Assembly: GCA_963711395.1 (NCBI GenBank)
Contig: CAVQEA010000001.1
Coordinates: 25,213 to 89,212 of the forward strand
Reading direction: 5' to 3'
Length of the DNA: 64,000 nt
Origin: an uncultured delta proteobacterium
GTDB taxonomy: Bacteria > Desulfobacterota > Binatia > JACPRU01
Shown: piece after piece, positions 5,436 through 55,573 of the stretch
How the letters are laid out: every line of letters begins with the position of its first letter
Position numbering within the stretch: position 1 is the stretch's first letter
Notes under the pieces: generated by a model
Databases searched by the model: none
The model's input: the letters and a program-made list of their open reading frames with translations, nothing else
Told to the model about the DNA's origin: nothing
Made by a program: the position numbers and the translations under genes

Positions 5436-5466
5436 GTGCCCGACGCCACCCATCGCGAGGACGGCA

Positions 5467-5481
5467 GCACGTACCGTGCCA
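5467..5481 (-). promoter_or_regulatory. sigma54 -24/-12 promoter
   Basis: Minus strand TGGCAC-GGTAC-GTGC. Confidence 0.75.
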
Positions 5482-5544
5482 CGGAAGATCCGCGAGCGTT
5501 TCTCTACGACGTGTCAGCCTGCGTGCTCGCGCGTTCCGCCAGAA

Positions 5545-5561
5545 TGCAAGTACGCTTTGCA
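5545..5561. promoter_or_regulatory. Palindromic enhancer-like site TGCAA-N7-TTGCA
   Basis: TGCAAGTACGCTTTGCA; 16/17 identical to the 2265 site and about 64 bp from the -24 element. Confidence 0.6.
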
Positions 5562-5610
5562 GATCGAAGCACAGGTCTCGAAGCGAAAAGGCGAATCGGA
5601 GCACCGCGCT

Positions 5611-5913
5611 TCACAGATGCTCGGCGGCGGCGAGAACGAACATCATCCAACCGTCGGCGCATCCCGTCTTGGCCGCGCGCTGAATGGTCGAGATCACCGA
5701 CGGGACGAGCTCGTCGTTCACGACGAGCTCGAGCTTCACTCTCGGCAGGAATGCGAGTGCATGGGTCTCACCGCCAGGAGATTCGGCACGCGCCGCCTCA
5801 CGTGCAAAGCGCTTGACCTCGCTCACGGCGGCCTCGCGCACGCACATTGCTCCGAGGGCGCGCTTCACTTCCTCGAGCCTGGACGGCTTGATGATCGCCT
5901 CGATTCGTCTCAC
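5611..5913 (-). CDS. P-II-like (GlnB fold) protein, copy 1; degenerate T-loop and B-loop
   Basis: [21 protein letters not shown]...VSEVKRF...[30 protein letters not shown] aligns with GlnB by eye. The start overlaps the kdpC stop (GTGA). Confidence 0.75.
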
Positions 5914-6569
5914 GGACGCGCGATCGGTCTAGTTGCTGGAAGCATTGCTCGCCGGCGGCGCCGAGTGGATCTCGGAGAGGCCGGGGCGGTATTTGGACTC
6001 GCCTCGTCGAGCGCCAGGTTCAGCTCGAGAACGTTGACCCGTGGGTCACCGAGGATTCCGTATTGGCGGCCTTCGACGTGGGCTCGCAGCAGCTCTCGCA
6101 CCTTGTCTTCGGGGAGTTTGCGGGCCTTGGCCACGCGCGCGACCTGGAGCTCGGCCGCCGCCGGGCTGATGTGTGGATCGAGCCCGCTTCCCGAGGTGGT
6201 CACTAGATCCGCGGGGATCTTGGCACCGGGATTCTCGCTGGCCAGCTGCTGCACGGCGTCGCCGACGCGCTTCTGGAGGCCGGCATCATTCGGACCGAGG
6301 TTCGAGCCGCTCGAGGCGCCGGCGTCGTAGCCGTTCGTGCCGGCGGCCGAAGGGCGGGGGTGGAAGTAACCGTCGCCCGCGAAGTTCTGGCCGATCAGCT
6401 CCGATCCGATCACCTGATCGCCGTGGACGATCAGGCTGCCGTTCGCCTGGTGGGGAAAGAGGAGCTGGGCGAGACCCGTCATCGCCAGCGGGTAGAGGAT
6501 GCCGGTGATCACGGTGAGGATCAGAGTCATGAGGATCGCGGGACGGAGCTCGGAAAGCATGTGGGTCAC
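5910..6569 (-). CDS. kdpC: K+-transporting ATPase subunit C
   Basis: [63 protein letters not shown]. Confidence 0.95.
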
Positions 6570-13038: not shown

Positions 13039-13119
13039 CGGGACCCCTGTCGCCGGCGTCTGCTACGGGACGCCTGCTACGATGTGGCGCCCGACCGATT
13101 TTCGTGTCAAACGGTTCGC

Positions 13120-14448
13120 GTGAGCGGTGTAGACGACAGGCGCGACGAAACGCCGATCGCGGAAGCGCGAGCCGTCTCGAAGATCTTTGACCGCGACGGT
13201 CGCGAGCTCACTGTGCTGCGCGACGTCAGCCTTGCGATCCGTGAAGGCGAGGTCGTCGCAGTTCTTGGTCCGTCGGGCTGTGGCAAGTCGACACTGCTCC
13301 GCATTTTGACCGGGCTGATCGCGCCGACGAGCGGAGAGGTGCTCTGCCACGGGCAGGGGCTGCGCGGCATCCATCCCGGCGCTTCGATCGTGTTCCAGAA
13401 CTTCGCGCTCTATCCGTGGCTCACTGTCGCCGAGAACGTGCGCGTCGGCCTCCACCGCAAGGGGCTCGGCGCCTCCGAGGAGGCGGGCCGCATCCGGCGC
13501 GCCATCGACCTCGTCGGTCTCGAGGGTTTCGAGGAGGCGTTCCCCAAGGAGCTATCAGGCGGAATGAAGCAGCGCGTGGGCATCGCCCGCGCGCTCGTCG
13601 GAGGACCCGAGCTCCTCTGCATGGACGAGCCGTTCTCGGCGCTCGACGTGCTCACGGCCGAGTCGCTGCGCTCGGAAGTCTACGGGCTCTGGTCCCGCGG
13701 CGACCTCGGCTTGAAGAGCATGCTGCTCATCACTCACCTGATCGAGGAGGCGGTGTTCCTCGGCGACCGAATCGTGATCCTGGCGTCGAATCCTGGATCG
13801 ATCCGGCGGGTGCTCGAGAACCCGCTGCGCCATCCGCGCGAATACCGCGACCCGCGTTTCTCGACTTCGTCGACGAGATCCACGCCGTCATCACCAGCAT
13901 TCACCTGCCCGATGTCGAACGGCCGTCGCGCGGGCCGGCGACGCCGCGCATGGAGCCGCTGCCGCCTGTGGCGATCGGCGAGATCGTCGGTCTTCTCGAG
14001 GTCGTCCACGATCACGGCGATCGCCATCAACCTCTTCGAGCTGGCTTCGCAGTCTGCGGCTCGAGATCGGCCACGCGATCCTCGCCGTGAAGGCCGCGGA
14101 GCTGCTCGGTCTCGTCGACACCCCGAAGCAGGAGGTGGTGCTGACGGCGGCCGGCCGCGAGCTCGTCGGCGGCGACGCCAACGTGCGCAAGCGCATCTTC
14201 CATCGCCAGCTGCTCGGCCACGCCCACCTTCGCGATGCTCGTGGAGCAGCTTCGCCGCGCGCCCGAGCAGGCGGTTGCCGCAAGGACATCGTCGAAGAGC
14301 TCCTGGTGATGAACGTGCCGGACGAGCCGTACGAGGCGCTGTTCGAGACGATCGTCGGTTGGGGGCGCTACGGCGAGCTCCTCGGCTTCGATCCGCGAGA
14401 CACAGAGTGGTGTATCTCGATCCGGAGGCCGGCGCCGTCGCCGCCTGA
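13120..14448 (+). CDS. NitT/TauT-family ABC ATP-binding protein with C-terminal AAA-associated domain; frameshifted
   Basis: [43 protein letters not shown]. The C-terminal extension continues in other frames ([18 protein letters not shown]). Confidence 0.85.
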
Positions 14449-14472
14449 GGCGACGTCACCGGTTCGCGCGAC

Positions 14473-16213
14473 GTGGCCCAGGCGATCGACAGGCCCACGA
14501 GCGTCGAACCTCGGACGCCGCGGCGCCGTCGAGCTCGCCGTCGACGGTGCGATCTCTCTTCGGTGCTCGGCGCGATGGTCGCCGGCACGGTGGCGCTCGC
14601 GCGGCGCTGGGCGGCGCCGCTGCGGCCGACGATCGACATCGACCTGTCGCTGTGGGCGCTGCCGCAAGTACACGCTGCTGTCGCTCTCCCGCGGGCTCGC
14701 CGCTTACGTGCTGTCGCTGGTCTTCACGCTGGTCTACGGCACCATCGCCGCCTACAACCGCCGCGCCGAGCGAGTGATGATCCCGCTGCTCGACGTCCTG
14801 CAGGGCATTCCCGTGCTCGGCTTCCTGCCCGGACTGGTGCTCGGCATGGTCGGCTCTGTTCCCGCACTCGAACGTCGGGCTCGAGCTCGCCTGCGTGCTG
14901 ATGATCTTCACCGGCCAGGTGTGGAACATGACGTTCTCGTTCTACGGGTCGTTGCGCGCGATTCCCGCCGAGCTCCGCGAGGTGGCGCTCGTGCATCGCT
15001 TCGGCTGGTGGAAGCGGTTCCGCACGCTCGAGGTGCCGTCGGCGATGATCGGCCTGGTGTGGAACTCGATGATGTCGATGGCCGGCGGGTGGTTCTTCCT
15101 CACCGTGAACGAATCCTTCACTCTCGGGGATCACGACTTCCGCCTGGCGGGCATCGGCTCCTACATGAGCGTCGCCATCGATCGCGGCGACCGACGGGCG
15201 ATGGCGGGAGCCGTCGTCGCCATGGTCGTGATGATCGTCGTCGTCGACCAGCTGCTGTGGCGCCCGCTCCTCGCCTGGGCGCAGAGGTTCAAGCTGGAGG
15301 ACACGAGCGCGAGCGAGGTGACGCCGCTCGTGGCTTCTCGATCTGTTGCGCCGCTCGCGGGCCGTGTCTTGGCTCGAAGAGCGCCTCGGACGAATCTTCG
15401 CGGCGCTCGAGCGGCGTGCGGCGGCCCGGGGCGCCCGGCGCGGGCAGGGTGGCGGTCGTTCGTGCGCGGCGCCCTCGGCTGGCTCGTCGTCGGCATCGTC
15501 GCGATCGTGGTGCTGCAGGGCGCCAGGCATCTCGTGACGCTGCTCGCCGCCGTGCGCCTGCGCGAATGGCTGAAGCTCGCGTTCGCCCTTCTTCTCACGT
15601 TTCTGCGCACCATGGCCGCGCTGGCGATCGGCGCGGCGTGGTGCGTGCCGGTCGGCGTCTGGGTCGGACGATCGCCGGCTCGCACGCGGCTGATCCAACC
15701 GCTGGTGCAGATCGCCGCGTCCTTTCCCGCCCCGATGATCTTCCCGCTCGCCACCCTCGCCGTGCTCGTCGACTCGGCATGAGCTTCTCCGTCGGCTGCG
15801 TGCTGCTCCTGGTGCTCGGCTCGCAATGGTACATCCTCTTCAACGTGCTCGCCGGCGCCACGGCGATCCCGCAGGATCTGCGAGAAGCGGCGACGACTTA
15901 CGGGCTCGCGCGCTTCGAGATCTGGCGGCGGCTCTATCTGCCCGCGGTGTTCCCCCACCTGGTGACCGGCCTCATCACCGCGGCCGGCGGGGCCTGGAAC
16001 GCGAGCATCGTCGCCGAGTACGTGCGCTACCGGGGCCAGACGCTGGTCGCGCCGGGCCTGGGATCGCTCATCACGGAGGCGACGGCCGCCGCGAACTTTC
16101 CGTTGCTGGCGGCGGGCGTGCTGACGATGTCGCTGGCGCTCGTGACGCTGAACCGCACGGTCTGGAAGCGGCTCTATCGCATCGCCGACGAGCGCTTCAG
16201 CCTCAATCGCTGA
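14473..16213 (+). CDS. ABC transporter permease with two TM modules (NitT/TauT type); frameshifted
   Basis: LDVLQGIPVLGFLP, QVWNMTFSFYGSL, WNSMMSMAGGWFFL, QWYILFNV, GGAWNASIVAEY in successive frames. Confidence 0.85.
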
Positions 16214-16223
16214 AGCAGGGAGG

Positions 16224-16548
16224 GTGCCGATGGGTGGAATGACCTGGTTGGTATTCGTCGCGTCGGCAGTCCTGGAGGTCGGCGGCGATGCGCTGATCCG
16301 CGCCGGTTTGCGCGGCGAACGGCTCGCGCTCGTGGTGGGAGGCTTCGTGACGCTCGGCTCGTACGGGCTGTTGATCAACACCATGCGCTGGGATTTCACG
16401 CGCCTGCTCGGCATGTACATCGCGGTGTTCGCGGTGACGAGCGCCCTGTTCGGGCGCTTTGTGTTTCGCGAAAGCGCCTCGCACGACGACGTGGCTCGGG
16501 CTCGTGCTGGTGTTGGGCGGCGCGGCGGTGATCCAGCGCGGAGACTGA
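16224..16548 (+). CDS. Small four-TM membrane protein (SMR/YnfA-like); frameshift near the 3' end
   Basis: LEVGGDALIR, FTRLLGMYIAVF; hydrophobic, about 105 aa. Confidence 0.65.
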
Positions 16549-16551: not shown

Positions 16552-16935
16552 TTACTTCTCGATCGGCAACCCCTGCTCTTTCCAGGCCGCGATGCCGCCC
16601 GCCATCGAGCGCACGTTCGTGAAGCCCATGGCCTGCAGCACGTCGGCGGCGAGCGCGCTGCGTCCGCCGCTCGCGCAGTGCAGGACGATCGTCTGGTGGC
16701 GGTCGGCGAGGCGCGGCTCGCGGTTCGCGTATTCGAGATCCGCCTTCGCTTCGAGCATGCCGCGCGGCACGAGCAATGCCCGCGGGATGTGGCCTTCCGA
16801 CCATTCCGCGGGCTCCCGTACGTCGACGATGAGTAGGCGGGGATCCTGCTTCGCGGCCGCGGCGGTGTCGCTCGCGCTGATCTCGCGGATGCGCGTCTTG
16901 GCGTCGGCAACGAGGTCCTTCAGAGATTTCGGCAT
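16552..16935 (-). CDS. Rhodanese-domain sulfurtransferase
   Basis: DVREPAEW..GHIP, active-site loop HCASGGRS, MAGGIAAW. Confidence 0.9.
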   Translation of the reverse strand: MPKSLKDLVADAKTRIREISASDTAAAAKQDPRLLIVDVREPAEWSEGHIPRALLVPRGMLEAKADLEYANREPRLADRHQTIVLHCASGGRSALAADVLQAMGFTNVRSMAGGIAAWKEQGLPIEK

Positions 16936-17007
16936 GGCATCGCTCCTTTCCCTCCGAGCCATCGAGCAACGGGGCAAGCGTGCGTTGCGACGCTTGCCGC
17001 TGCATGA

Positions 17008-17021
17008 TACATTGCTATGTA
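17008..17021. promoter_or_regulatory. Palindrome TACAT-N4-ATGTA, candidate ArsR operator
   Basis: TACATTGCTATGTA in the AT-rich divergent intergenic region between the rhodanese and ArsR genes. A related sequence occurs at 18340. Confidence 0.45.
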
Positions 17022-17054
17022 GCGATACAGTAGAGACTCCGTCAACAGCACGCC

Positions 17055-17414
17055 GTGGCTAGACACCCCAAACGGGAGCTTTCCGACGCGGCGCTGGCGA
17101 TGATCGCCGAGCGCTTCAAGGTTCTCGCCGAGCCCATGCGGTTGAAGATCTTGCACGCGCTGTGGGACGACGAGCGCACGGTCGGCGAGGTGATCGAAGC
17201 CGTCAACGGCTTGCAGGCAAACGTGTCGAAGCATCTCGGCGTGCTTCAACAGGCGGGTCTGGTGAGCCGGCGGAAGGAAGGGCTGAGGGTCTTCTATCGG
17301 ATCGCCGATCCCACCGTGTTCAATCTCTGCGAAGTGGTCTGCGAGAGCTTGCACGACCGACTGGCTTCACAGATCGGCGAGATCCAGCCCGCCGGCGCGC
17401 GCCGGCGCGCCTGA
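17055..17414 (+). CDS. ArsR/SmtB-family regulator with a C-terminal CxxxC
   Basis: FKVLAEPMRLKIL, ANVSKHLGVL, GLVSRRKEG, FNLCEVVC. Confidence 0.9.
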   Translation: MARHPKRELSDAALAMIAERFKVLAEPMRLKILHALWDDERTVGEVIEAVNGLQANVSKHLGVLQQAGLVSRRKEGLRVFYRIADPTVFNLCEVVCESLHDRLASQIGEIQPAGARRRA

Positions 17415-17459
17415 GTTCCCGGTCCTCACCGAACGGCGGCGCCGCGGGTGATCGGCTGA

Positions 17460-17897
17460 GCGCCGTGCTCGGGAGAGACGGGTGCGAGCGCGTCGCGCGC
17501 GTTCCCAGACGAGCATTCCGACGAGCATCGCCAACACGAAGAGCACGGATTGCCATAGGCCGTACGCGAGGCTTGCGACAGCGGGGCCTGGGCAAAATCC
17601 CGCCAGACCCCAGCCGATGCCGAACAGCGCCGACCCGCCGATCAATCCGCTGTCGATGCGCCGCGAGGCGGGAACATGGAATTCGGCTACGAAGAGCGGA
17701 TGAGGCCGGCGAAGCAAGACTCGAAAGCCGACCGCCGCCACCGCCAAGGCGCCTCCCATGACGAAAGCGAGGCTCGGATCCCAGTCGCCAAAGAAGTCGA
17801 GAAAGTCGGTCACCTTCCGCGGGTTCACCATCTGCGAGATCGTGAGCCCCGCGCCGAACAGAGTGCCGGCGAGGAAGGAGCTGCAAAGCCGTCGCAT
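17460..17897 (-). CDS. YeeE/YedE-family sulfur-compound transporter component; 3' end uncertain
   Basis: GLTISQMVNPRKV..FLDFFGDWDPSLAFVMGGAL, GWGLAGFCPGPA. Confidence 0.85.
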
Positions 17898-17899
17898 GG

Positions 17900-18322
17900 T
17901 CAACCTCCGATGCCGTGTCGCATCACGAAAACGGTGACGGCACCGGCAGCCATGAAGGTCAGCGTGGCCGCCAAGGAACGGGGGGAGAGCCGAGCGAGAC
18001 CGCAAACGCCGTGGCCGCTCGTGCAGCCGTTGCCGAGCCGCGTTCCGAACCCGACCAGCAGTCCCGCGAGCACGAGCTCGGGAGCGCTCGCCGCGATGAT
18101 CGGCTGTGCGTCGTTGCCGGCCAGCCTCACGAGCCAGCATCCCGCGACGAGACCGAGCACGAAAGCCAGGCGCCACGATCGGTCGCTCTGGGCGCGGGCC
18201 ACCAACCCGCCGACGATGCCGCTGACGCCGGCGATACGCCCGATGGAGAGGAGCAGCACGCAAGCCGCCAGGCCGATCAACGATCCGCCGAGCAGCGCCG
18301 AGTACGGGGTGAAGTGTTCCAC
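17900..18322 (-). CDS. YeeE/YedE-family sulfur-compound transporter component
   Basis: [39 protein letters not shown]. Confidence 0.9.
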
Positions 18323-18435
18323 GAGGGCCTCCGCTTGACTACAACACTATATTGATAGAGACTCATGCACTATAAACAAGCCGCACGACGTTTGCAATGT
18401 CGGCGGCGCTTCGTGGGCCGGGTAAGGAGGAGCGC

Positions 18436-19493
18436 ATGCTGTTCCGCGAGCTCAACCGCAGCAAGTGCAAGACGTACCTGATCGCTTGCGAGGAGACGCG
18501 CCGCGCGGCGCTGGTCGATCCCCTGAAGGAGAAGCTCGAGCGCTACGTGGCCATGCTCGCGTATCACGGGCTGCGCCTCGAGGCGGTGATCGACACCCAC
18601 ACGCACGCCGATCACCGGACGGCGAGCTTCGATCTGCGCGAGTTGGTCGGTGCGACCGCGATCATGCATCGTCGGGCGCCCGCGCCGCACATCGACAGGC
18701 ACGTCGACGACGGCGACACGATCGCGATCGGCAACCTGCGGATGCGGGTCTTGGCGACGCCCGGCCACACGCCCGACGGGATCTCTCTGGTATGCCCCGG
18801 CTGCGTGCTCACCGGTGACACGCTGATGATCCGCGGCACCGGGCCGATCGGATTTCGCCGGCGGAGACCCGGGGGCGCAGTACGATGCGATCACCGGCAA
18901 GCTGTTTTCGCCTGCCGGACGAGACGCTGGTCTTCCCCGCGCACGACTACCGCGGCAACCTCTCGTCGACGATCGGCGACGAGAAGCGCTCCAACCCGCG
19001 CCTCGCGGGACGCACCCGCGAGGCCTACATCGATCTCATGAACAACCTCGGCCTGCCGCTCCCCGACAAGATCCAGGAATGTCTGCAGCCGAACGAAACC
19101 GCGCTCGAGGACGATCGGCTGCGCTTCCCGACGCTCGCCGAGCTCAACAAGGTGCAGCAGCGCAACTCACGAGAAGTCAGCGCGGATCTCGCTTCGCCGG
19201 CTCCGCCATTGATCCTCGACGTGCGGGAGCCCGAAGAATTCGACGGTGAGCTCGGCCATATCCCGGGCGCCGTGCTGGTCCCGCTCAAGGATTTGCCGGG
19301 ACGCGCGACGGAGATCGACGCGTACAAGGAGCGGCACGTGGTGGTCGTCTGCCGCGCGGGGGTGCGCAGCACGACCGGCGCCGCGATTCTCACCGGCCTC
19401 GGCTTCGAGCACGTCTCGAATCTGAAGGGCGGGATGCTCGATTGGAACGACCAGCGCCTGGAGGTCGAGCGGGGATCTCGCGACGATGGCTGA
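18436..19493 (+). CDS. Persulfide dioxygenase-like MBL-fold protein fused to rhodanese; frameshifted
   Basis: CKTYLI, DTHTHADH, TPGHTPD, LTGDTL, then LVFPAHDYRG...STIGDEK..NPRL, and a C-terminal rhodanese DVREPEEF...VCRAGVRS. Confidence 0.85.
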
Positions 19494-21029
19494 CGCGGTC
19501 GCGGGAGAGTCCGCGACGGCGGTGCGGTGGGCAAAGGTCGTCGATCACGAGCGCTGCATCGGCTGCCACGCGTGCACGACGGCCTGCAAATCGGAGAACG
19601 AGGTCCCGCTCTCCGTCAACCGCACGTACGTGAAGTACGTCGACGTCGGCGTCTATCCTCATACCCGGCGGGCGTTCCAGGTCACGCGCTGCAATCAGTG
19701 CGAGGACCCGCCGTGTACGCACGTCTGTCCGACTACCGCGATGTACCAGCGCGGCGACGGCATCGTCGATTTCGACAAGCGGATCTGCATCGGCTGCAAG
19801 GCCTGCATCGCCGCCTGTCCCTATGACGCGATCTTCATCAACCCGGAGGACCATTCGGCGGAGAAGTGCAACTTCTGCGCGCACCGCATCGACGTCGGCC
19901 TCGAGCCGGCGTGCGTGGTCGTTTGTCCGGTGGACGCGATCCTCGTCGGCGACTTGAACGATCCCCGCTCCACGGTCGCGGCGATCGTCGGGCGCGAAGC
20001 CTTGTCCGTGCGCCGCCCCGAGAAAGAGACACGTCCCAAGCTCTTCTACAAAGGGGCGCATCAGGCGACGCTCGATCCGCTCGCTGCTCGCCGACCCGAC
20101 GGCGGCATGTTCCTGTGGAGCGAACAAGGCACGCTGCCTCACCAGGTGACGTCCGGACATCCCGGGGCCGCCAACAGCTCGGCCGCCGCGCTGCTCGCCT
20201 ACGACGTGCCACACCGCATGCCGTGGGACTGGCGGCTTTCGCTCTACACGTGGACCAAGGGCATCGCCGCCGGCGCATACCTGGTGCCCCTGACTGCTGG
20301 TTCTCGCCGGCGTGATCCCGGACGCGAGCCCGCTCTGGCGCTTCGCGGCGCCCGTGGTCGCCGGCGCCTTTCTGGCGCTCACCGGCGTGATCCTGATCGC
20401 CGATCTCGAGCACCCGCGAGCGCTTCTGGCTGATCTTCGCGCGCCCGCAATGGCGGAGCTGGCTCGTGCGCGGAGCGTTCATCATCGCTGGCTACGCGGT
20501 GGTCCTCGCTGCTGCACTTCGTGGCGAGCTTCCTCGATGCGGAGAGCGCGCAGCGCGCGCTCGCCGTCGCGCGGACTGCCGCTCGCGGCGCTGACGGCCG
20601 TCTACACGGCGTATCTTGTTCGCCCAGGCCAAGGCGCGTGATCTCTGGCAGAATCCGCTGTTGCCACCGCACTTCCTCGTGCAGGCGGCTGCTCGCCGGC
20701 GCCGCGACGATGCTGCCGCGTCGCGGCATTGGCTCGAGCCCGCCGCGCTCGTCCCGCTCGCATCGATGCTCGGCGCGAGCTCGCTACTCCACCTGTTGTT
20801 CGTCGCTCGGCGAGGTGACGCTCACCCACCCGACGGCGCACGCGCGTCTCGCGGTCGAGGAGATGACGGTCGGCGAGTATCGCGGATTCTTCTGGGTCGG
20901 CGTCGTGCTCGTCGCGCTCGCGGCGGCGGCACCGTGGCTCGGCGTGGCGGCGCGGCGCCGGCGCTCGCCGGCCTGCTCGCGCACGAGCACGCCTACGTGC
21001 AGGCCGGGCAGTCGGTGCCGCTCGCCTGA
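19486..21029 (+). CDS. 4Fe-4S dicluster (NrfC/PsrB-like) subunit fused to an NrfD/PsrC-like membrane anchor; frameshifted
   Basis: CIGCHACTTAC, CNQCEDPPCTHVCP, CIGCKACIAACPY, KCNFCAHR..PACVVVCP. The same frame continues into PWDWRLSLYTWTKGIAAG, and later frames give LIADLEHP and ARDLWQNPLL. Confidence 0.85.
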
Positions 21030-21042
21030 AGGGAGCACGACG

Positions 21043-23954
21043 ATGGAAGCCAAGCCCAACACCGCGCGTATCGGCGGCTCAGTCGGCGACGGAGTCGCGC
21101 GGCGAGACGTACTATCCCGGTCCGAGCGGCATCCACCTCGCTGCGTTCCCGCCGAAGGAGCGCTGGGACGACTGGGTGGAGCTCGACTCGCGCGCCTGGC
21201 CGGAGCGCGTCGAGCGTCGCTACATGCTGGTGCCGACCACGTGCTTCAACTGCGAATCGGCTTGCGGTCTGCTCGCCTACGTCGACAAGGATTCGCTCGA
21301 GATCCGCAAGCTCGAGGGCAATCCCGAGCACCCCGCCTCACGCGGCCGCAACTGCGCCAAGGGCCCGGCGACTCTCAACCAGATCCACGACCCGCATCGC
21401 ATCCTCTACCCCTTGAAGCGCGACGGCGCGCGCGGCGAAGGCAAGTGGCGGCAGGTCGGTTGGGACGAAGCGCTCGACGACATCGCGCTCCGTATCCGGA
21501 GGGCGATCGCCGAAGGCCGGCGAAACGAGGTCGTCTACCACGTCGGTCGGCCCGGCGAGGACGGCTATACCGAACGGGTGCTCGCCGCGTGGGGTCTCGA
21601 CGGACACAACTCGCACACCAACATCTGCTCGTCGAACGGCCGCGCCGGATACCACTACTGGATGGGTTTCGATCGGCCGAGCCCCGACTATGCCAATGCC
21701 GACGTGATCTTGCTGATCAGCGCTCACCTGGAATCAGGCCACTATTTCAATCCCCACGCGCAGCGCATCGTCGAGGCGAAGCAGCGTGGCGCCAAATTGA
21801 TCGTCTTCGACGTCCGGCTCTCCAACACCGCCACCCATGCCGACTACTGGGTCTCCCCATATCCCGGAACGGAGCCCGCGATCCTGTTGGCCATCGCCGG
21901 CCATCTCATCCGGCAGCGCCGCTACGACCGCGAGTTCGTCCGCCGCTGGTGGAACTGGCGCGAATACCTGCGGGCGCGCCACCCCGGCGGACAAGAGACC
22001 TTCGAGCGTTTCGAGGCCGAGCTCGCTCGCGAATACGAGAGCTACACGTTCGAGTTCGCCGCCAAGGAGTCGGGGATCGATGCCGAGACGATCGCCGAGG
22101 TGGCCGAGATCGTGGCGCGCGCCGGCACGCGACTGGCGACGCACACGTGGCGGAGCGCCGCGGCGGGAAACCTGGGCGGCTGGCAGGTGTCGCGCACGCT
22201 CTTCCTGCTGAACGCGCTCCTCGGCGCGATCGGCACGGAGGGGGGCACGCATCCCAACGTCGCCAACAAGTTCGTGCCGCGCCCGATCCACGTTCCCGCG
22301 CATCCCCAGGTGTGGAACGACCTCAACTGGCCGACCGAGTATCCGCTGGCGATGAACGAGATGTCGATGCTGTTGCCGCATCTTCTGAAGGATGGGCGCG
22401 GACGGCTCGATGTATATTTCTCGCGCGTCTACAACCCGGTCTGGACCAATCCCGACGGCTTCACCTGGATCGAGGCGCTCACCGACGAGAAGCTCGTCGG
22501 CCTTCACGTCGCGCTGACGCCGACGTGGAGCGAGACGGCATACTTCGCGGACTACGTGCTGCCGATGGGCCTCGGTGCCGAACGACACGACATCCATTCC
22601 TACGAAACCCACGATGCGACAGTGGCTCGGCTTCCGACAACCCGTCCTGCGCGCGGCTCGAGAGCGGCGCGGTGAGCGCGATCACCGACACGCGGGCCGC
22701 GAACCCCGGAGAGGTTTGGGAAGAGAACGAGTTCTGGATCGAGCTCTCCTGGAGAATCGACCCGGACGGCGCGATGGGCATCCGCCGGCATTTCGAATCC
22801 AGGAAGAACCCGGGCACCAAGCTCGGCGTCGAGGAGTACTACGGCTTTCATCTTCGAGAACTCCGTGCCGGGGCTCGCCGAGCGCGCCGCGAAGGAGGGA
22901 TTGAAGCCGCTCGAGTACATGCGCCGCTACGGGAGCTTCGAGGTGCAGCCGCAAGAGCGGCGCGCTGCACGAAGAACCGGTGCCTCTGGCGGAGCTCGAC
23001 GACGTGCGCGTCGACGACCTCGGCGCGTCTACACGCGCGACGGCGAAGCCGGCGGGCGCGAACATCGTGCCTTTCCCGACTCCTGATCCCGACGCCGACG
23101 GCAGGCGGCTCGTCGGCGTCGAGATCGACGGAGAGCCGCGGCGCGGGTTTCCCACGCCGAGCGGGCGCCTCGAGTTCTACTCCTCCACGCTCGACCGCTG
23201 GGGTTGGCCGGAGTACGCGCTGCCGACGTACATCCGGAGCCACATCCATCCCGAGCGGCTCGAGGATGGACAGATGCCGCTCATCCCGACGTTCCGCATA
23301 CCGGTGCAGATCCACACCCGTAGCGCCAACTCCAAGTGGCTGGACGAGATCGCCCACACGAACCCGTTGTGGATCCATCCCCGAGATGCCGAGCGCTTGT
23401 CGCTCCGCACGGGCGCGCTGGTCCGCGTCGAGACCGAAATCGGCTACTTCGTGGTGAAGGCCTGGGTCACGGAAGGAATCCGGCCGGGTATCGTCGCTTG
23501 TAGTCATCACATGGGACGTTGGAAGCTCGACGGGGAAGGGCAGCGACAGCTGATGGCGACGGTCGCGCTCGCCCGCGAGGGCGGGCGCTTCAGTCTGCGC
23601 CGCAAGGCCGGCGTGGCGCCGCATGACAGCGTGGACCCGGACACGCGGCGGATCTGGTGGACCGACGCCGGCGTCCACCAGAACCTGACCTTCCCCGTGC
23701 ATCCCGATCCGATCTCCGGGATGCACTGCTGGCACCAGGCGGTGCGCGTGAAGCGCGCCGAGGCCGGCGATTCGTACGGCGACGTCTCCGTCGACGTCGA
23801 CAAGGCCCATGAAGTCTACCGGCGCTGGCTCGAGATCACGCGCCCCGCCGCGCGCGTCTCCCCGGACGGTACGCGGCGGCCCTACTGGTTGCTGCGGCCG
23901 CTCAAGCCGTCGCGCGACGCGTATCGGTTGCCCGCTGCCGACGCTTCTCCATAA
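21043..23954 (+). CDS. Mo/W-bisPGD oxidoreductase catalytic subunit (Psr/Phs/Soe-like), no Tat signal; frameshifted
   Basis: PTTCFNCESACG...NCAKG (FS0 cluster), RILYPLKR, HTNICS (Cys ligand), ADYVLP, C-terminal binding domain QIHTRSANSKWL..NPLWIHP. Confidence 0.88.
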
Positions 23955-23961
23955 TCGGGGC

Positions 23962-25761
23962 GTGAAGGCGACCTCCGATACGACCGTCGCTCGGGATCGC
24001 CTCACGAGAAGGCAGCGACCGAGGCGGCGCGAGAGGCGGTAGCTCGGCTTCGCGGCGACGTGCTCGCGGGCATCACGACCGGCATCCTCGCGGTTCCGCA
24101 GGGGATCGCCTTCGCGCTGATCGCGCACGTACCGCCCGAGCACGGCCTCTACGCGATGATCGTGCCGACGATCGTCGCGGCGCTCATCCGCAGCTCTCCG
24201 TTCCTCGTCACCGGGTCGACGAACACCTCCGCGCTGGTGATCGGCGCTCTCGTAGCGTAGCTTCGCGCCGGCGCCGCGGAAGCGGTGCCCACGATGCTGC
24301 TGATCACGCTGCTGATGGGCGCTGATCCAGGTGATCGCGCGGGCGCGCTTCGCCTCGGCGCCTTCGGTCGTTACGTGTCGCAGGCGGTGCTCGTCGGCTT
24401 CACGCTCGGCGCCGCGACTCTGATCTTCACCGACCAGATCCACAACGTGCTCGGCGTGCCGGTCGAATCGTCGCCGCGGCTTGATCGAGACCTTCGAAAA
24501 TCTGCGTGCCGAAGCTCCGGATGTGCGGACCCGCGAGCGCTCGCCATCGCGGTCGTCACCTGGGCGATCGTGCTCGGCTGCGCGCGGATCTCGCGAGTGA
24601 TCCCGGGCGCGATGATCGCGATCGTCGTCACGGCGGCGGGCGCGACGATGCTCGGCTGGGAGGACGGCCCTCTCCGGTGCGAGTCGTCGGTGACGGTCCC
24701 AAGGGGCTTGCCGGCCGTGACGGTGCCGCCCGTCTCCCTGTCGCGCGTCGACCAGGTGCTGCCGGCGAGCTTCGCGATCGCCGTGCTCGGCATGGTCGAG
24801 GCGATCTCGATCGGCAAGGCGCTGTCCGCTCGTGCGCAGGTGAAGTTCTACGCCAACCAGGAGCTGCGTCGCGAAGGGCGTGGGCAACGTCGTCGGGCGC
24901 GTTCTTCGGCTGCATGCCGACGTCCGCGAGCTGGACGCGCAGCGCGATCAACCTGCAGATGGGCTCGAAGACGCGCTGGGTCGGAGTCGTCTCGGGTTTC
25001 ACGGTGCTGGCGATCATGATCGCCTTCGGCCCGGCCGCGCGCTACGTGCCGCGCGCGTGCCTGGGCGCGATCATCATGTGGATCGCCGCGCTGATGGTGG
25101 ATCTAGCGACGGCGCGCTACGTGTGGCGGTGGAGCCGGACGGACGCGGTGGTGCTGGTGATCACCTACGTCTCGACGATCGTCTTCCAGATCCAGTACGC
25201 GATCTACCTCGGCATCGTCATGTCTCTGGTGATGCTCGTGCGCCGAGTCGGCGAGCTACAGGTGGTCGAGATGATGGAAGTGGCGCCGCGCATCTACCGC
25301 GAGATCGAGATCGACGCCGCAGACGGGATCGAGCGCGCTCGTGCTGCTGGCTCTCGAGGGCGATCTCTTCTTCGGAGTCGTCGAGGAGCTCGAGGAGCAT
25401 CTGTCGCGGATCGCCGCCAACGGCGCGCGGGCGATCATCATCCGCATGAAGCGCGCCCACGCGATCGACGCCACGGCCGCTGAGGTCGCTGGCCAACTTC
25501 GCCATCCAGTTCCAGGCGAAGGGCGGTCGCTTGATGCTCTGCGGTCTGAAACCGGAGCTCCACGCGCAGGTGCTGCGCTCGCACCTGGGCGAGGTGCTCG
25601 GGCGCGAGAACGTGCTGCTCACCGAAAAGCGCCACTCGGTGTCGTTGCGCCGCGCGATCGAAACGGCGCGGCGAGATCTGCTCGCTGCGGGCATCGGGCA
25701 CCAGCCGTTGGCGCGCTCCGCCGGGGCCGAGTCGGCGGACGGCTCGGCGTACAGCATCTGA
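23962..25761 (+). CDS. sulP: SulP-family anion permease with STAS domain; heavily frameshifted
   Basis: VPQGIAFALIA..PPEHGLYA, VLVGFTLG, GMVEAISIGKAL, ANQEL, GCMPTSASWTRSAIN, EGDLFFG (STAS). Confidence 0.8.
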
Positions 25762-25806: not shown

Positions 25807-28800
25807 ATGCGCTGCTCGGCGTGCAGTCACGAGAATCGGCCGCTCGCAAAATTTTGCGCCGGCTGCGGCGCGCCGCTGGCGCGACGCTGCGCGAGCTGCT
25901 CCGCAGAGCTGCCGGCGGCGGCGCGCTTCTGTGACAGCTGCGGGACCCCTGTCGAGGCAGCGGCGGCGGCCGCCGCGCCGGCGCGGACTCCCGGCTCCTA
26001 CACGCCGCAGCATCTCGCCGAAAAGATCCTCACCAGCCGCAGCGCCCTCGAGGGGGAGCGCAAACAGGTGACCGTGCTCTTCGCCGACGTCGCGGGCTTC
26101 ACCGCGCTGTCGACCCGTCTCGACCCGGAAGACTTGCACGCCGTGATGGACGGCTGTTTCCGCCACGTGATGGAGGCGGTGCACCGTTACGAAGGCACGG
26201 TGAACCAGTTCACGGGGGACGGCGTCATGGCACTGTTCGGCGCGCCCATCGCGCACGAGGACCACGCGGCGCGTGCGGTGGCCGCATCCTTGGCCATCCA
26301 GAAGGCGCTCGCGGCGTACGGTGCCGATCTACGTCGTACGCGCGGCGTCGAGTTCGGCCTGCGTATCGGTCTCAACACCGGCCCGGTGGTGGTCGGCAAG
26401 ATCGGCGACGACCTGCGCATGGATTACACGGCGCAGGGCGAGACCGTGAATCTGGCCGCGCGTCTGCAGCAAGCGGGGACGCCCGGAGCCGTGCTGATGA
26501 GCGAGACGACCGCGCGCCTGGTTCGCCGGGCGTTCGTCACGGAAGACCGCGGCGAGATCACGCTCAAGGGCATCGATCATGCGGTGCGCGTCTACGCGGT
26601 GACCGGGGAGAGCCGGCGGCAAAGCCGCTTCGATGCGCTTCTCGAGCGCGGCCTGACGCCCTTGGTCGGGCGGGAGCGCGAGCTCGTCTTCCTCGAGGAT
26701 TGCCTGGCACGCGCGAGGGAGGGACGCGGGCAAGCGATATCGCTGGTCGGCGAAGCAGGGGTAGGGAAGTCGCGGCTCGCTTACGAGCTCGGTCGGCGGG
26801 CGCAATCGTCGGGCGTGGTGGTTCGCAAGGCCGAGTGCTTGCCGCATGGCGAAGCGGCGCCGTTTCGCGCCGCCGTCGAGCTTCTGCAGGCGATCCTGCA
26901 CCTCGAGGAGAGCGCCGCGGCGAGCACGCGCGCCGAGACGTTGCAGGCGGCTGTCGCCGAGCTCGACCCGACGCTCGCCTGGGTAGTACCGTACGCCAAG
27001 CTGCTGCTCGCGCTGCCGGCCCCGGAGCTCGAGGCAGAAGGCCTCGATCAAGCGCAGCGCAAGCAGCGGACGCTCGAAGCGGTGAAGGGACTGATCTTCC
27101 GCTGCGCCGACGAACGGCCGCAGCTGCTGCTCGTCGAAGACCTGCAATGGGTCGACCGCAGCTCCGAGGAGGCCCTTCATGCCCTCGTAGGCGCGCTCGC
27201 CGACCGGCGCATTCTTCTCCTCTGCACGTATCGGTCCGGGTACGCGCCTCCGTGGCAAGAGCGGAGCTTCCACCATCGCCTGGCGCTCGAGGAGCTCGTG
27301 GCCGGCGACGCCGCTCGTATGGTCGAAGCGCTGCTGCCCGGCTCGGACGCGCAGCCGCTGCGCGAGCTGGTGGCGGCGAGGGCGGAAGGCAATCCGCTGT
27401 TCGTGGAGGAGCTTGCCGGGTTTCTCCGCGACCAAGGAGAACGGTGGCTCGCGGGCCGCCGACGCGGTGCCGGAGACGATCCACGATCTGTTGACCGCAC
27501 GCATAGATCGGCTCCCTGATGTGCCGAAGCGCGTGCTGCAGCGCGCTTCGGTGCTCGGCCGGGAGTTCCCGCTGCGACTTCTCGAGTCGGTGAGCCCCGC
27601 CGGCGAAGACGTGCGCGGTGCGGTGAATGAGCTCGTCGCCCGCGAGCTGCTGGACGAGAAGCAGCTCTTCCCGGAGGTGCGGCTCTCCTTCGCACAGGCG
27701 CTGATCCGCGACGTCGCCTACCGCGGGCTGCTGCTCAAGTCACGGGCGGAAATACATGCGCGGGCAGGCCTGGCCCTGGAAACTCTCTACGCGGACCGCC
27801 TCGACGAGGTGCTGCACGATCTCGCGCGTCACTTCGGCGAGAGCGGCGAGCCGGCGCAAGCATTGCGCTACCGGCTGCGCGCGGGGTTGCGCGCGGCGAG
27901 CCTGTTTGCCTACGAGGATGCCGAGGCGGACCTGCAGGCCGCGCTCGCGCTCGTCGACGCCCACCCCGACCTGGCGGGCGAGCGCGGCGAGGTGCTCGAT
28001 CGCCTCGGCGAGGTGGTCTTTGCGAGCGGCCTCATCGGCACCGCGCTCGAGCACTGGACTCGAGCCCTCGTCGCATCGGGCACCTCAGGGCGTAAAGTCG
28101 CAGATTTGTATCGCAAGCGGGCGGCGGCGCACTGGGCCGCAGGCCAAACCGATCGCGCGCTCGCCGACCTCGAGAGCGCGCGCGGCGCCCTCGGCGCCGA
28201 GCTCGAAACGATCGAAGGGGCGCGCATCGCGCAGGAGCTCGCCCGCATTCACTTCCGCCTCGGCGACAACCGCCGCGCCACCGAATGGGCCGATCAGGCT
28301 CTCGCACTCGGCGAGCGCCTCGGCGCTGCCGACGTCGTCTCGCATGCCTACAACACCCTCGGGGTCGCCGCGGCGCGGGCTGGAGAGCTCGAGCGCGGCG
28401 CGACGATGGTGGAGAAGAGCTTGGCGACGGCCTTGGCCAGCGATCTCGGCGCGGTTGCCTGCCGCGCCTACGCGAACCTGGCGGTGATGTTTACCAGCCT
28501 CGATCACCGCCGCTCGGAGCAGTATTGCCGAGAAGGCTTGGAGCTGGCGCGCCGCATCGGCGACCAGCTGCAGCAATCGTGGCTGTACTGTGCGCTTGCC
28601 GGCGGCCATTGCACGCTCGCCGGGGATTACGACGAGGGTGTGCGCGCGGCGCAGGCCGCGATCGAGCTCGATCGCCGGCTCGGACAGCAGAGCCATCTGC
28701 CGATCCCGATCATCATCCTCGCGCAGATCTACCAGTGCCGCGGCGACTATGCGCGCAGCGCCGAGCACTACCGTGAAGCGCTCGGCCTCGCGGAAGCGCT

Positions 28801-28966
28801 CGGTGAGCCGCAGCTGTTGTTCCCCTGCTACGACGGCCTCGCCACGCTCGCCATCGAGGAAGGCGACGAGGAGGAGGCGGAGCGTTGGCTTTTGCGAAGC
28901 CGCGCGGTGCAGGAGGCGGCGGGCTGGTCGAGCGACAGCTTTCTCGCCCTCCCGTTTCTCTGCTAG
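25807..28966 (+). CDS. Double zinc ribbon-class III nucleotide cyclase-AAA ATPase-TPR protein; frameshift near 27480
   Basis: CSAC/CAGC/CASC/CDSC, VLFADVAGFT, FTGDG, TVNLAARLQ, GEAGVGKSRL, EDLQW, GNPLF, then TPR-like repeats. Confidence 0.88.
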
Positions 28967-28984
28967 AGGTTGCGCGGAGGGACT

Positions 28985-29572
28985 ATGGAACACATCACCG
29001 TTGGATCCCCCGCGCCGTCGTTTCGTTTGCCGACCGCGCAGGGCGGGGAGGTCGGTCTCGCCGACTATCGCGACCGGAAGAACGTGGTCGTCTGGTTCAC
29101 CAAGGGCATGGGTTGTCCATTCTGTCGCTCGCAGATGACGCAGATCTCGCGGGCGTATCCGGAGATGCAAAAGCTCGACGGCGAGGTGCTCGAGGTCACG
29201 GTATCGCCCGTGCGGCGGGCCCGCATCTACGCGGAGAAGTTCCAGCTGCCGTTCCCCTACCTCTGCGACCCTGATTACGAGGTGCGTCAGAAGTGGGGCG
29301 TCGCATCACGCTCGCACGGCGTCGGCCACTACGTCTCCGCTCTCGTGAAGGGGATGAGGACCCCCGTTCCCGCCAACGACTTCGGCACCTTCGCTCCGCC
29401 GCTCGACGAATTGCCTCGCATACTGAGCGACGACGACATGGGGTTCTTCATCGTCGACAAGCAGGGGATCGTGCGCTACGCGACGACGGGCATGTACCGG
29501 ATCGACAGCTCGGGTGTGTCGATCCCGGGCAACGAAGAGATCCTGCGCGAGCTCGGCAAGCTCGCGGCGTAG
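28985..29572 (+). CDS. Peroxiredoxin-like (AhpC/TSA, CxxC) protein
   Basis: GSPAPSFRLP, CPFC, LPFPYLCDPD, FIVDKQGIVRY. Confidence 0.75.
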   Translation: MEHITVGSPAPSFRLPTAQGGEVGLADYRDRKNVVVWFTKGMGCPFCRSQMTQISRAYPEMQKLDGEVLEVTVSPVRRARIYAEKFQLPFPYLCDPDYEVRQKWGVASRSHGVGHYVSALVKGMRTPVPANDFGTFAPPLDELPRILSDDDMGFFIVDKQGIVRYATTGMYRIDSSGVSIPGNEEILRELGKLAA

Positions 29573-33821: not shown

Positions 33822-35223
33822 GTGGAAGGATTGCACGGGACAAAGGAGCTTGCGGCGGCGACGGTCACACCGCCGCAGTCGGTGCGTCGCGCGCTCGGCG
33901 ATCTACGCCGTGCGCACCAGCAGAGCCGCCGGGAGTTTCCGCGCGCTCTGGCGGTGGGGCTGCTCGCGGGGCTCGCCGCGGTCGCGTTTCGCGGCTCGCT
34001 CGAGTGGCTCGATCAGTTGCGGGATCGAGCCGTCGATGCGGCGCATCTCGATCCGCTGTGGCGCCTTCCAGCGCTGCTCGTACTGACGGCGTTCGGTGCC
34101 GGGGCGTCGGTTTTTCTGGTCGAGCGGTTCGCCCCGGAAACTTCGGGCAGCGGCATTCCGCACGTCAGTGCCGTGCTGCACAGCTTCCGCGCCATGCGCT
34201 GGCAGCGGATACTCGTCGTCAAGTTTCTCGGAGGCATTTGCGCAATCGGGGCGGGCCTAGCGCTCGGTCGCGAGGGACCGACCGTGCAGATGGGCGCGGC
34301 CATCGGCGCGATGGTGAGTGGTTGGTTTTCCGCGACCCCGCACGAGCGGCGCGCACTCATCGCCGCGGGATCCGGTGCGGGTCTCGCCGCCGCCTTCAAC
34401 GCACCGCTCGCGGGGCTGGTGTTCGTGCTCGAAGAACTGCAGCGCAATTTCGCCGCCCGCGTCTTCGCTGCCACCCTGCTGGCCGCCGCAGTTGCGGACG
34501 TGACCACGCGTCTCTTCCTCGGTCAGCTTCCCGTGTTCCATATGGGATCGGCGGCGATTCCGTCGCTGCACGACGCTGCCGGCGTCGGTGCTGACGGGCG
34601 TGCTGGCCGGTGGGCTTGGCGTCGCGTTCAATCGCGCGCTGCTCGGGAGCCTGGATTTCTTCCAGGGCCTTCGAGCTCGACCCGGCTGGGTTTACGCGAG
34701 TGCCGTCGGTTTTGCGATCGGCGTAGTCGCTTGGATCGCGCCGCACGCAGTCGGCGGCGGTGAGGGTCTGGTGGTCGAAACGCTCGCCGGGCGGACTCCC
34801 GGGTGGATGCTTCCTCCGTACTTCTTGCTGCGGTTCGCGCTCACCATGGCGAGCTACGGATGCGGCGCGCCCGGCGGAATCTTCGCCCCGCTTCTCGTGC
34901 TCGGCGCCGAGATCGGGCTCGGCGTCGGCAAGCTCGGACATTGGCTGTTCCCCCTGGCGATGGCGCACCCGGAGACGTTCGCGATCGTCGGCATGGCGGC
35001 CTACTTCTCGGCGATCGTGCGCGCTCCGCTCACCGGCATCGTGCTGATCGTCGAGATGACCGGTAACTACTTGTTAGTCCTGCCCCTGCTGGTCGGCTGC
35101 TTGACTGCGTATGCCGTCGCCGATCTCCTCGGCGACCCGCCGGTCTACGAAGCGCTTCTCGAACGCGACCTGCTCAGGGGAAATGCCACAGAAGTGAGGG
35201 TGGGGTCGGCCACCGTCCCTTGA
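33822..35223 (+). CDS. clcA: ClC H+/Cl- exchanger; frameshift near 34570
   Basis: GSGIP, GREGPTVQ, FNAPLAG, GIFAP, VRAPLTGIVLIVEMT. Confidence 0.9.
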
Positions 35224-35318
35224 ACGATGTGTAACCGGCAAACTGGTTGTGCTCCACTTCAAGCTTGCTACAAGGAGGATCGGGCCGAGAATCGAAACCA
35301 CGTCGTGCGAGGTGCGCC

Positions 35319-36649
<1,331 letters not shown>

Positions 36650-36658
36650 CGCCCCCGG

Positions 36659-37403: not shown

Positions 37404-37491
37404 CTCTAGGGCATCCCCCTTGTCGTGCGAGGCGAACTCAATATAAGCGTTCCGTTCCGACGAAAGTCAATTCACCTCTAAGGAGGAATCC

Positions 37492-55570: not shown

Positions 55571-55573
55571 CCG

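Follow-up and report, generated by a model that had tools for sequence, protein, structure and literature searches.

What does a membrane-bound molybdoenzyme do when its genes lie among genes for persulfide handling? The question is raised by an eight-gene cluster, at positions 16552-25761 of a 64,000-nucleotide stretch of DNA (hereafter the window) from an uncultured delta proteobacterium of the Binatia. A first-pass annotation of the window had listed a rhodanese, an ArsR regulator, two YeeE/YedE genes, a persulfide dioxygenase (PDO)-rhodanese fusion, an iron-sulfur (FeS)-NrfD protein, a molybdenum-bis-pyranopterin guanine dinucleotide (Mo-bisPGD) subunit and a SulP transporter, and it had proposed that the Mo enzyme takes the place of a sulfide:quinone oxidoreductase (SQR). 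Our analyses lead us to favour another role, with some confidence. The Mo enzyme would be a Soe-like, cytoplasm-facing sulfite:quinone oxidoreductase that acts downstream of PDO and completes a route from thiosulfate or persulfide to sulfate.

Gene identities were established by Pfam and NCBIfam scans of the window, which recovered all eight of the families originally named. The features of the cluster are as follows.

16552..16977, minus strand: rhodanese, single-domain sulfurtransferase (Pfam Rhodanese, 5.5e-23, 81.8 bits); longest open reading frame (ORF) 141 aa
17000..17054: AT-rich divergent spacer between the rhodanese and ArsR genes, a candidate promoter/operator, which holds TAGAGACTC at 17031-17039
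17055..17414, plus strand: ArsR/SmtB-family regulator of 119 aa (Pfam HTH_5/HTH_20), with a C-x3-C pair in LCEVVCES
17367..17897, minus strand: YeeE/YedE-type membrane half of the DUF6691 family (PF20398, 151 bits)
17900..18322, minus strand: second YeeE/YedE-type half, 140 aa (PF04143, 37.6 bits, profile positions 177-309)
18323..18436: divergent spacer between the YeeE halves and PDO, with an AT-rich block, TTGACT...ATTGATAGAGACTCATGCACTATAAA, and a second TAGAGACTC at 18356
18437..19493, plus strand: PDO-rhodanese fusion of the PRF type (Pfam Lactamase_B and Rhodanese in two frames; tblastn matches in three)
19486..21029, plus strand: FeS-NrfD fusion, a four-cluster ferredoxin (PsrB/SoeB-like, Fer4_11) joined to an NrfD/PsrC-like quinone-binding membrane domain
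21044..23954, plus strand: Mo-bisPGD catalytic subunit, ~968 aa (Molybdop_Fe4S4, Molybdopterin and Molydop_binding in separate frames)
23962..25761, plus strand: SulP/SLC26 anion transporter that ends in a STAS domain (pieces of Sulfate_transp and STAS spread over three frames; tblastn)

The last four genes are co-oriented and tightly spaced, as had been described. FeS-NrfD starts at 19486, ahead of the PDO stop at 19493, so that the two genes overlap, and the remaining gaps are of about 10-30 nt. The rhodanese gene probably starts at the ATG at 16935, which has an AAGGAG site ahead of it and gives a protein of 127 aa; the active-site loop in its translation reads CASGGRS. Because the region has a G+C content of 67%, plain ORF lists are full of spurious frames. 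The first-pass annotation had the families right, but it did not see the frameshifts that interrupt the last four genes.

Architecture and orientation of the molybdoenzyme

The three redox modules of SoeABC-type enzymes are all present, namely a Mo-bisPGD subunit with the FeS cluster FS0 (CFNCESAC...C) and a Cys ligand region (HTNICS), a four-cluster ferredoxin and an NrfD/PsrC-type anchor. The intact Mo orthologue carries the Molybdop_Fe4S4, Molybdopterin and Molydop_binding domains. The FeS-NrfD orthologue (P0002) combines Fer4_11 and NrfD in one polypeptide of 513 aa.

The first 65 residues of the Mo subunit form a conserved hydrophilic extension (…ETFYPGPS…FPPKERWDDWVELD…). Among 120 orthologues, these residues contain neither a twin-arginine translocation (Tat) motif nor a hydrophobic h-region, and the hydropathy maximum over 12 aa has a median of 0.11. 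Pairs of arginines are confined to two conserved hydrophilic stretches of this N-terminus. We rejected them as Tat signals, as most belong to a conserved RRVERRYLL directly before FS0 and no hydrophobic region follows any of them. The FeS domain of the fusion similarly starts without a signal or Tat sequence, and in an alignment of 74 orthologues K/R-rich and K/R-poor loops alternate as for an NrfD anchor with a cytoplasmic N-terminus. The absence of an export signal argues for a cytoplasmic active site, and the cytoplasmic N-terminus of the anchor places the fused FeS domain on the same side. Both the active site and the FeS domain are thus predicted to face the cytoplasm.

Of the NCBIfam models, PhsA fits the Mo subunit best, with 193 bits for a cut-off of 694. 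TtrA (103.5 bits; cut-off 1750), ArrA (98 bits; cut-off 1600) and DmsA-type models score lower, the ArrA, YnfE and YnfF models giving about 100 bits each, and no Soe model was found among the NCBIfam matches of this subunit. The nearest solved structures are PsrA and PsrB of Thermus thermophilus PsrABC, with 172 bits between the FeS part and PsrB (2VPW_B); we found no Soe structure in the PDB. Having no twin-arginine signal and scoring below the equivalog cut-offs, the Mo subunit does not fit the Psr, Phs, Ttr or Arr types as such. Nevertheless, PhsA as the best model and PsrABC as the nearest structure support its placement among the sulfur-type (Psr/Phs/Ttr/Soe) members of the DMSO-reductase superfamily rather than in a non-sulfur clade.

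Genetic associations of the molybdoenzyme

The four-gene operon is intact in the related genome G003, where it codes for PDO-rhodanese (369 aa), FeS-NrfD (513 aa), Mo (971 aa) and SulP-STAS (597 aa) proteins, and its genes there either overlap or are separated by fewer than 25 nt. G037 and G032 have intact copies too. All eight genes of the cluster are found again in two further genomes, G002 and G006, and an unrelated metagenome-assembled genome (MAG), L033, has seven of the eight genes, the free rhodanese alone being missing. A more distant branch, with a Mo subunit of 48% identity in a Myxococcota MAG, has the PDO-rhodanese, both YeeE halves, FeS-NrfD and Mo genes in a row. As the gene set recurs in G002, G006, L033 and this branch, the cluster is a conserved grouping and not a chance one. 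This bears out the earlier view of the transporter halves, sulfurtransferase, PDO, quinone-linked Mo enzyme and SulP as a functional module, and it extends the linkage with YeeE to all these genomes.

We then considered 44 species loci in which the Mo gene has 5 kb or more of sequence on either side. In 40 of them Mo is immediately preceded by the fused FeS-NrfD gene, and a PDO-like metallo-beta-lactamase (MBL) gene lies within 8 kb in 20, whereas SulP and ArsR genes are found near Mo in nine and five loci, respectively. An unbiased clustering of all ORFs in 101 loci returned MBL and rhodanese proteins as recurrent neighbours (45/101), in agreement with the Mo-PDO co-occurrence that the first-pass annotation had suggested surveying. 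None of the outcomes that it had named as refuting its idea was encountered. DsrE-like proteins (16 loci), Usp (11), class-V aminotransferases (7) and LysR regulators (7) also recur, as does DUF445 (18), which has no obvious link to sulfur. In many related loci the MBL is a longer, CstB-like protein with two rhodanese domains.

Two cultured organisms illustrate these associations. On plasmid pRHL3 of Rhodococcus jostii RHA1 (locus L102, 215183-231969), the FeS-NrfD/Mo pair is accompanied by two MBL/PDO genes and by ArsR, DsrE and TusA genes. The same locus has two DUF202 genes and a gene for an Mrp/NBP35 ATPase, which may help insert FeS clusters. In Thermomicrobium roseum, a CsoR-like regulator is encoded beside the FeS-NrfD/Mo pair. 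The Mo genes of the two organisms are RHA1_RS43835 and TRD_RS12030, respectively.

The PDO, rhodanese and DsrE partners, combined with a Tat-less architecture that resembles SoeABC, would place the Mo enzyme after PDO, as the sulfite step. We found no positive evidence that it replaces SQR, and its cytoplasm-facing architecture points to a sulfite step and not to a sulfide-oxidising entry. The cluster had also been described as devoid of SQR, sox and dsr genes. SoxB is indeed absent from the whole 78.8%-complete assembly, while no search was aimed at SQR or Dsr. The genome encodes three SUOX-fold proteins elsewhere.

The gene neighbourhoods also bear on the possibility that the substrate is a non-sulfur oxyanion or metalloid, such as selenate, selenite, arsenite or tellurite. 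In that case ArsR would sense metalloids, with the sulfur genes supplying thiol or persulfide chemistry for detoxification. An ArsR/SmtB regulator is encoded immediately 5' of the operon in many actinobacterial loci, the gene order is similar to that of srdBCA, and the family reaches no curated functional model, all of which could fit such a role. However, the recurrent neighbours are PDO-rhodanese, DsrE, TusA and YeeE halves, with no recurring ars, sel or ter genes among them. The weak matches to ArrA, YnfE and YnfF point the same way, and the conserved C-x3-C pair of the regulator is probably not a classical ArsR/SmtB metal site. A metalloid substrate thus appears improbable to us.

Distribution and relatives of the molybdoenzyme family

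The Mo enzyme family is represented by 8000 database clusters at E ≤ 1e-20, the best 120 of which are all at least 73% identical, and it is 60-75% identical across many phyla. Acidobacteriota, Binatia, Armatimonadota and Thermodesulfobacteriota are among the sources of these clusters. A survey of species genomes extended the family to Gemmatimonadota, Actinomycetota (among them a Mycobacterium isolate), Chloroflexota, Planctomycetota, Dormibacterota and Myxococcota. T. roseum, R. jostii RHA1 and haloarchaea have copies on plasmids or chromids. A tblastn search of 72,556 plasmids gave nine records, none of which is a canonical soeABC.

Throughout the family, the FeS (B) and anchor (C) modules are encoded ahead of the catalytic subunit (A). 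A single BC ORF of ~513 aa precedes A in 90 of the 101 loci, unlike the three polypeptides in A-B-C order of SoeABC. When 301 genomes of the class around MAG L044 were sampled, only the fused type was present, at 61-75% identity, and a query with the FeS domain alone returned no unfused partner, just truncated fragments of fused proteins. Among 50%-identity cluster representatives, full-length relatives at 46-58% identity are BC-fused or unfused, all in B-C-A order. The next tier, at 34-38% identity, is Psr/Phs-like, with PhsA as the best named profile and, in some cases, TatAC and TorD genes. None of the relatives examined has an operon in the soeA-B-C order.

Several observations weigh against a Soe-like sulfite enzyme. 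The likeness to SoeABC is one of architecture and orientation only. The BC fusion and the BC-then-A order differ from soeA-soeB-soeC, the close full-length relatives sharing the order of ttrBCA and srdBCA, and the nearest named profile is that of a thiosulfate reductase, not of a sulfite enzyme. In addition, PRF- and CstB-type fusions are known to yield thiosulfate in vitro rather than free sulfite, and thiosulfate is therefore a possible substrate of the Mo enzyme. Finally, two studies that include family-bearing MAGs did not report soeABC for them or for the samples (PMC12345210, PMC6704655).

One may thus envisage that the enzyme acts on the cytoplasmic side upon thiosulfate, polysulfide or tetrathionate, with a chemistry of the Psr/Phs/Ttr type. 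Thiosulfate made by the PDO-rhodanese could be split into sulfite and sulfide with quinol. In the reverse direction, sulfide and sulfite could be combined to thiosulfate while quinone is reduced, which comes closest to the idea of an SQR replacement. Such chemistry would fit the thiosulfate-forming activity of PRF and CstB, PsrABC as the nearest solved structure, PhsA as the top profile for both the Mo subunit and its next-nearest relatives, and an operon order of the ttr/srd type, found in some cases with TatAC and TorD genes. Moreover, reduction of sulfur, polysulfide and tetrathionate was the activity first ascribed to the SoeA-related enzyme of Aquifex (PMC4378227). In contrast, the Mo subunit scores far under all curated cut-offs, the PhsA cut-off included, and its active site is predicted to be cytoplasmic, unlike that of the known Psr, Phs and Ttr enzymes, which are exported by Tat. 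PDO, its partner, requires O2, and according to established thermochemistry quinol-driven thiosulfate reduction is then very unfavourable. Linkage to a sulfite-producing PDO is also the dominant genetic context. For these reasons we consider reactions of this type unlikely, and a sulfite:quinone oxidoreductase is the activity that we favour.

Partner proteins and regulation

The window copy of the PDO-rhodanese has the HTHADH metal ligands and a CRAGVR rhodanese loop. Its orthologue P0001 aligns full length (residues 16-359) with the Burkholderia phytofirmans PRF structure 5VE3, at 235 bits, and the next structures are the PDO of Myxococcus xanthus (210 bits) and human ETHE1 (154 bits). In contrast, the score on the Blh model is 104 bits for a cut-off of 625. 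The HxHxDH site of the MBL domain, the full-length likeness to solved PDOs and the catalytic Cys loop of the rhodanese domain all correspond to a PRF/ETHE1-type protein.

The SulP orthologue (P0004) has a Sulfate_transp domain (267 bits) followed by STAS (49 bits), and it scores 311.7 bits on TIGR00815, whose cut-off is 380. The SulP genes found 3' of Mo genes belong to at least two subfamilies, with ~75% and ~30-35% identity to the G003 protein, which separate loci L013, L016 and L020 from L014, L023, L033, L072 and others. This split suggests that an anion transporter was recruited independently and repeatedly to the same position.

The two YeeE/YedE proteins both have the membrane domain of YeeE/TsuA proteins. 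The DUF6691 half also scores 30 bits on Sulf_transp (PF04143), and the second half aligns with the C-terminal half of that profile. They are nevertheless encoded by two half-size genes instead of the single ~330-aa polypeptide of TsuA, and the TsuA model gives 20.5 bits for a cut-off of 400. Beyond about residue 140 the DUF6691 half ends in an Arg-rich tail that appears to be out of frame, and a frameshift candidate was detected at 17503; a frameshift near this position is therefore likely.

The regulator has a winged helix and scores 84 bits on HTH_metalloreg and 51.6 bits on the BigR model (cut-off 155). Both of its Cys residues belong to one C-x3-C in the C-terminal helix, unlike the alpha2/alpha5 pair of BigR/SqrR-type proteins. 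This motif (e.g. LCEVVC or LCAIVC) is kept in the last helix of ArsR proteins encoded next to the operon in at least ten loci of several phyla (L020, L026, L031, L033, L037, L066, L071, L074, L079 and L088), and also in the relative G002. The carriers are MAGs labelled Dormiibacterota, Actinomycetota/Actinomycetes, Jiangellaceae, Micromonospora, Micrococcales and Enterobacteriaceae. These ArsR proteins may form a distinct, undescribed subfamily of sensors.

The 9-mer TAGAGACTC occurs only twice in the 64 kb, at 17031-17039 and 18356-18364, once in each of the divergent AT-rich spacers. In G002 and G006 the YeeE-PDO spacer is almost unaltered, with a conserved block at 18335-18380. We propose TAGAGACTC and its AT-rich block as a candidate operator for the CxxxC ArsR protein.

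Proposed pathway

These elements can be assembled into a putative pathway. The two YeeE/YedE halves would form a channel for the import of thiosulfate or another sulfur anion, the substrate being a guess. Transfer of sulfane sulfur to a thiol carrier would fall to the two rhodaneses, the free one and the domain of the fusion, and the PDO domain would convert the resulting persulfide and O2 to sulfite. The Mo subunit would then oxidise sulfite to sulfate, and FS0, together with the four [4Fe-4S] clusters, would relay the two electrons to a quinone bound by the NrfD domain. SulP might take the anion product out or bring substrate in; its direction is likewise a guess. The CxxxC ArsR repressor would switch on the two divergent promoters as reactive sulfur rises.

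This scheme is essentially the succession of import, sulfur transfer, PDO, Mo enzyme and SulP that the first-pass annotation had sketched, and it is the one favoured by the evidence. The module had further been called energy-conserving, which holds in an indirect sense. Electrons would enter the quinone pool, and energy would be conserved only downstream of it.

A broader proposal can be put forward more tentatively. The BC-fused, Tat-less Mo enzyme might represent a pan-phylum, cytoplasm-facing sulfite (or thiosulfate):quinone oxidoreductase that is separate from canonical SoeABC and perhaps not caught by published soe markers. Together with PDO-rhodanese, YeeE halves, CxxxC ArsR and SulP, it might make up a route from thiosulfate or persulfide to sulfate that depends neither on SQR nor on Sox. 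We rate this wider idea somewhat below even chances.

Frameshifts in the cluster

None of the last four genes is an intact ORF in the assembly. Their translations are interrupted by ~25 frameshifts, nearly all of one extra base, which we located by a frameshift-aware dynamic-programming alignment of the window to the intact G003 proteins. The PDO gene has two single-base insertions, near 18841 and 18905, FeS-NrfD has ten shifts between 20293 and 20951, Mo has four, at 22619, 22674, 22846 and 22949, and SulP has about nine as well as the sole in-path stop, at 24258. After correction the proteins are 75-86% identical to those of G003 (86% for Mo), and the HTHADH, CRAGVR, CFNCESAC and HTNICS motifs are all kept. 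The domains of each of the four genes were found spread over different frames, and a plot of G+C content at third codon positions also shows repeated switches of frame without stops.

To place these numbers in a genome-wide context, we used a codon-position hidden Markov model (HMM) trained on the genome's own long ORFs. Strict settings gave 1229 frameshift candidates in 5.13 Mb. Sensitive settings gave ~1.2 candidates per kb over 13 contigs, with a patchy distribution and the same +1 bias on both strands. The model recovers most of the shift sites located by alignment, and with 20 candidates in 7.4 kb the cluster is at the 89th percentile of windows of equal size. Since rpoB is absent from the assembly, the essential gene secA served as a yardstick of error; it is broken into at least nine pieces over 3.2 kb (G000:C5:647318-650509). 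Further frameshift sites of the window were noted at 3197-6002, 13853-16495, 27423, 34588-45377 and 55409-62002.

These figures are relevant to a decaying cluster, in which the mutations would be real and the pathway dead in this organism. The local density is high, with ~3.4 shifts per kb by alignment and an HMM count ~2.3 times the mean of 8.6 for such windows, and the orthologous operons of G002 and G006 are broken too. However, 11% of the genome's 7.4-kb windows have as many candidates or more, secA itself is in pieces, and the +1 bias is identical genome-wide. The positions of the shifts differ from those in G002 and G006, and the corrected translations retain high identity and all cofactor motifs, with a single stop. 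The broken copies belong to few-contig assemblies (the source genome G000, G002 and G006), while the 90-contig G003 is intact, a pattern that we take as typical of unpolished long-read assemblies. Decay is thus very improbable in our estimation. Given the genome-wide +1 candidates, the split secA, the unshared positions and the intact orthologues, the frameshifts look like assembly errors, and as such they imply that the operon is probably intact in the organism itself. Any ORF-based reading of this genome needs frameshift-aware methods.

Flanking genes

Upstream of the cluster, at 13084-16213 (plus strand), the window has a frameshifted ABC transporter, with an ABC_tran ATPase that carries an AAA_assoc_C tail and two BPD_transp_1 permease pieces. 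We presume that it resembles nitrate/sulfonate/taurine-type importers, and a connection with sulfite derived from sulfonates is conceivable. It is followed by a small YnfA/UPF0060 membrane gene at 16224-16548 (plus strand). On the other side, a plus-strand gene at 25807-28966 combines zinc-ribbon, adenylate/guanylate cyclase, AAA_16 and TPR domains, with a frameshift near 27423, and an AhpC/TSA peroxiredoxin gene comes next at 28970-29572. A second, unrelated Mo-bisPGD enzyme is encoded at the right end of the window (63710-64000; G000:C1:89072-90346), in an open frame of 743 aa. It has 36% identity to the Mo subunit of the cluster over ~86 N-terminal residues. At least six further genes with a Molybdopterin domain are present in the genome.

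Significance

How most PDO-containing heterotrophs dispose of cytoplasmic sulfite is an unsettled question. Action of PDO followed by SoeABC is already a pathway idea in the literature (PMC11507549, PMC12345210), and a sediment survey found direct sulfite dehydrogenases (SoeABC, SorAB and SUOX) to be rare or absent (PMC12345210). The present Mo enzyme family is nonetheless carried by the Bohai Sea Gemmatimonadota MAGs L054, L076 and L095, which are named after stations of that survey, and its operon by the Cock Soda Lake Gemmatimonadetes MAG L047 (PMC6704655). Because these MAGs carry the family and the studies list no soeABC, standard soeABC K-number/HMM markers may miss it. Our literature search returned no paper describing the BC-fused, B-C-A-ordered family or its PDO operon.

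If the enzyme is indeed a sulfite:quinone oxidoreductase, it might supply the apparently missing step of sulfite oxidation in PDO-bearing heterotrophs of soils and sediments. Inventories of sulfur-cycle genes may then undercount sulfite oxidation in Acidobacteriota, Gemmatimonadota, Actinomycetota, Binatia and others. A function would also be assigned to a large branch of the Mo-bisPGD superfamily that is uncharacterised, and the FeS-NrfD fusion would represent a natural, topologically fixed 'inverted' NrfD anchor. The cultured carriers include T. roseum and R. jostii RHA1, the latter with its copy on pRHL3 and genetically tractable.

Comparison with known systems

Individual parts of the cluster have counterparts in several known systems. 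The PDO-rhodanese matches B. phytofirmans PRF (PDB 5VE3-5VE5) over its full length. The BigR operon of Xylella and Agrobacterium (bigR, blh and YeeE/YedE-type genes) similarly brings together an ArsR-type regulator, an MBL PDO-rhodanese and YeeE/YedE proteins; to our knowledge, it includes neither a molybdoenzyme nor a SulP protein. The regulator and the PDO of the present cluster are nevertheless of other types than BigR and Blh, as shown by the position of the Cys pair and by scores far below both cut-offs. The cst operon of Staphylococcus aureus (CstR, CstA, CstB and SQR) follows the same logic of a persulfide-sensing repressor, sulfurtransferases and a PDO. In contrast, it starts with SQR and ends with thiosulfate, whereas here a Mo enzyme and an anion transporter are added and SQR is not among the identified genes of the cluster.

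With PsrABC, PhsABC, TtrBCA and SrdBCA, the enzyme shares the three-module architecture of complex iron-sulfur molybdoenzymes and, in the case of ttr and srd, the B-C-A order. Those enzymes leave the cytoplasm by the Tat route, and on the periplasmic side they use quinol to reduce their substrates. In contrast, the present enzyme is devoid of a signal, its FeS domain is fused to the cytoplasmic N-terminus of the anchor, and its scores are far below the respective cut-offs.

The closest likeness in layout is to SoeABC of Allochromatium vinosum, Aquifex aeolicus and Ruegeria pomeroyi, a cytoplasm-facing sulfite:quinone oxidoreductase whose anchor is inverted relative to PsrC (PMC8076601). The bSreA/SoeA clade has been described as cytoplasmic, Cys-ligated and of low sequence diversity (PMC10100899). 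Both systems have a Mo-bisPGD subunit of ~960-970 aa with an N-terminal FS0 and a Cys ligand, a four-cluster ferredoxin and an NrfD-type anchor, no Tat signal on any part, a cytoplasmic active site and a setting of cytoplasmic sulfite production. They differ in that B and C are here one polypeptide, encoded before A, whereas SoeABC consists of separate proteins in the order A-B-C. Their distributions differ as well. In a KEGG-based survey SoeC was found only in Proteobacteria, Aquificae and Clostridia (PMC8076601), whereas the present family belongs mainly to Acidobacteriota, Binatia, Gemmatimonadota, Actinomycetota, Chloroflexota/Thermomicrobia and haloarchaea.

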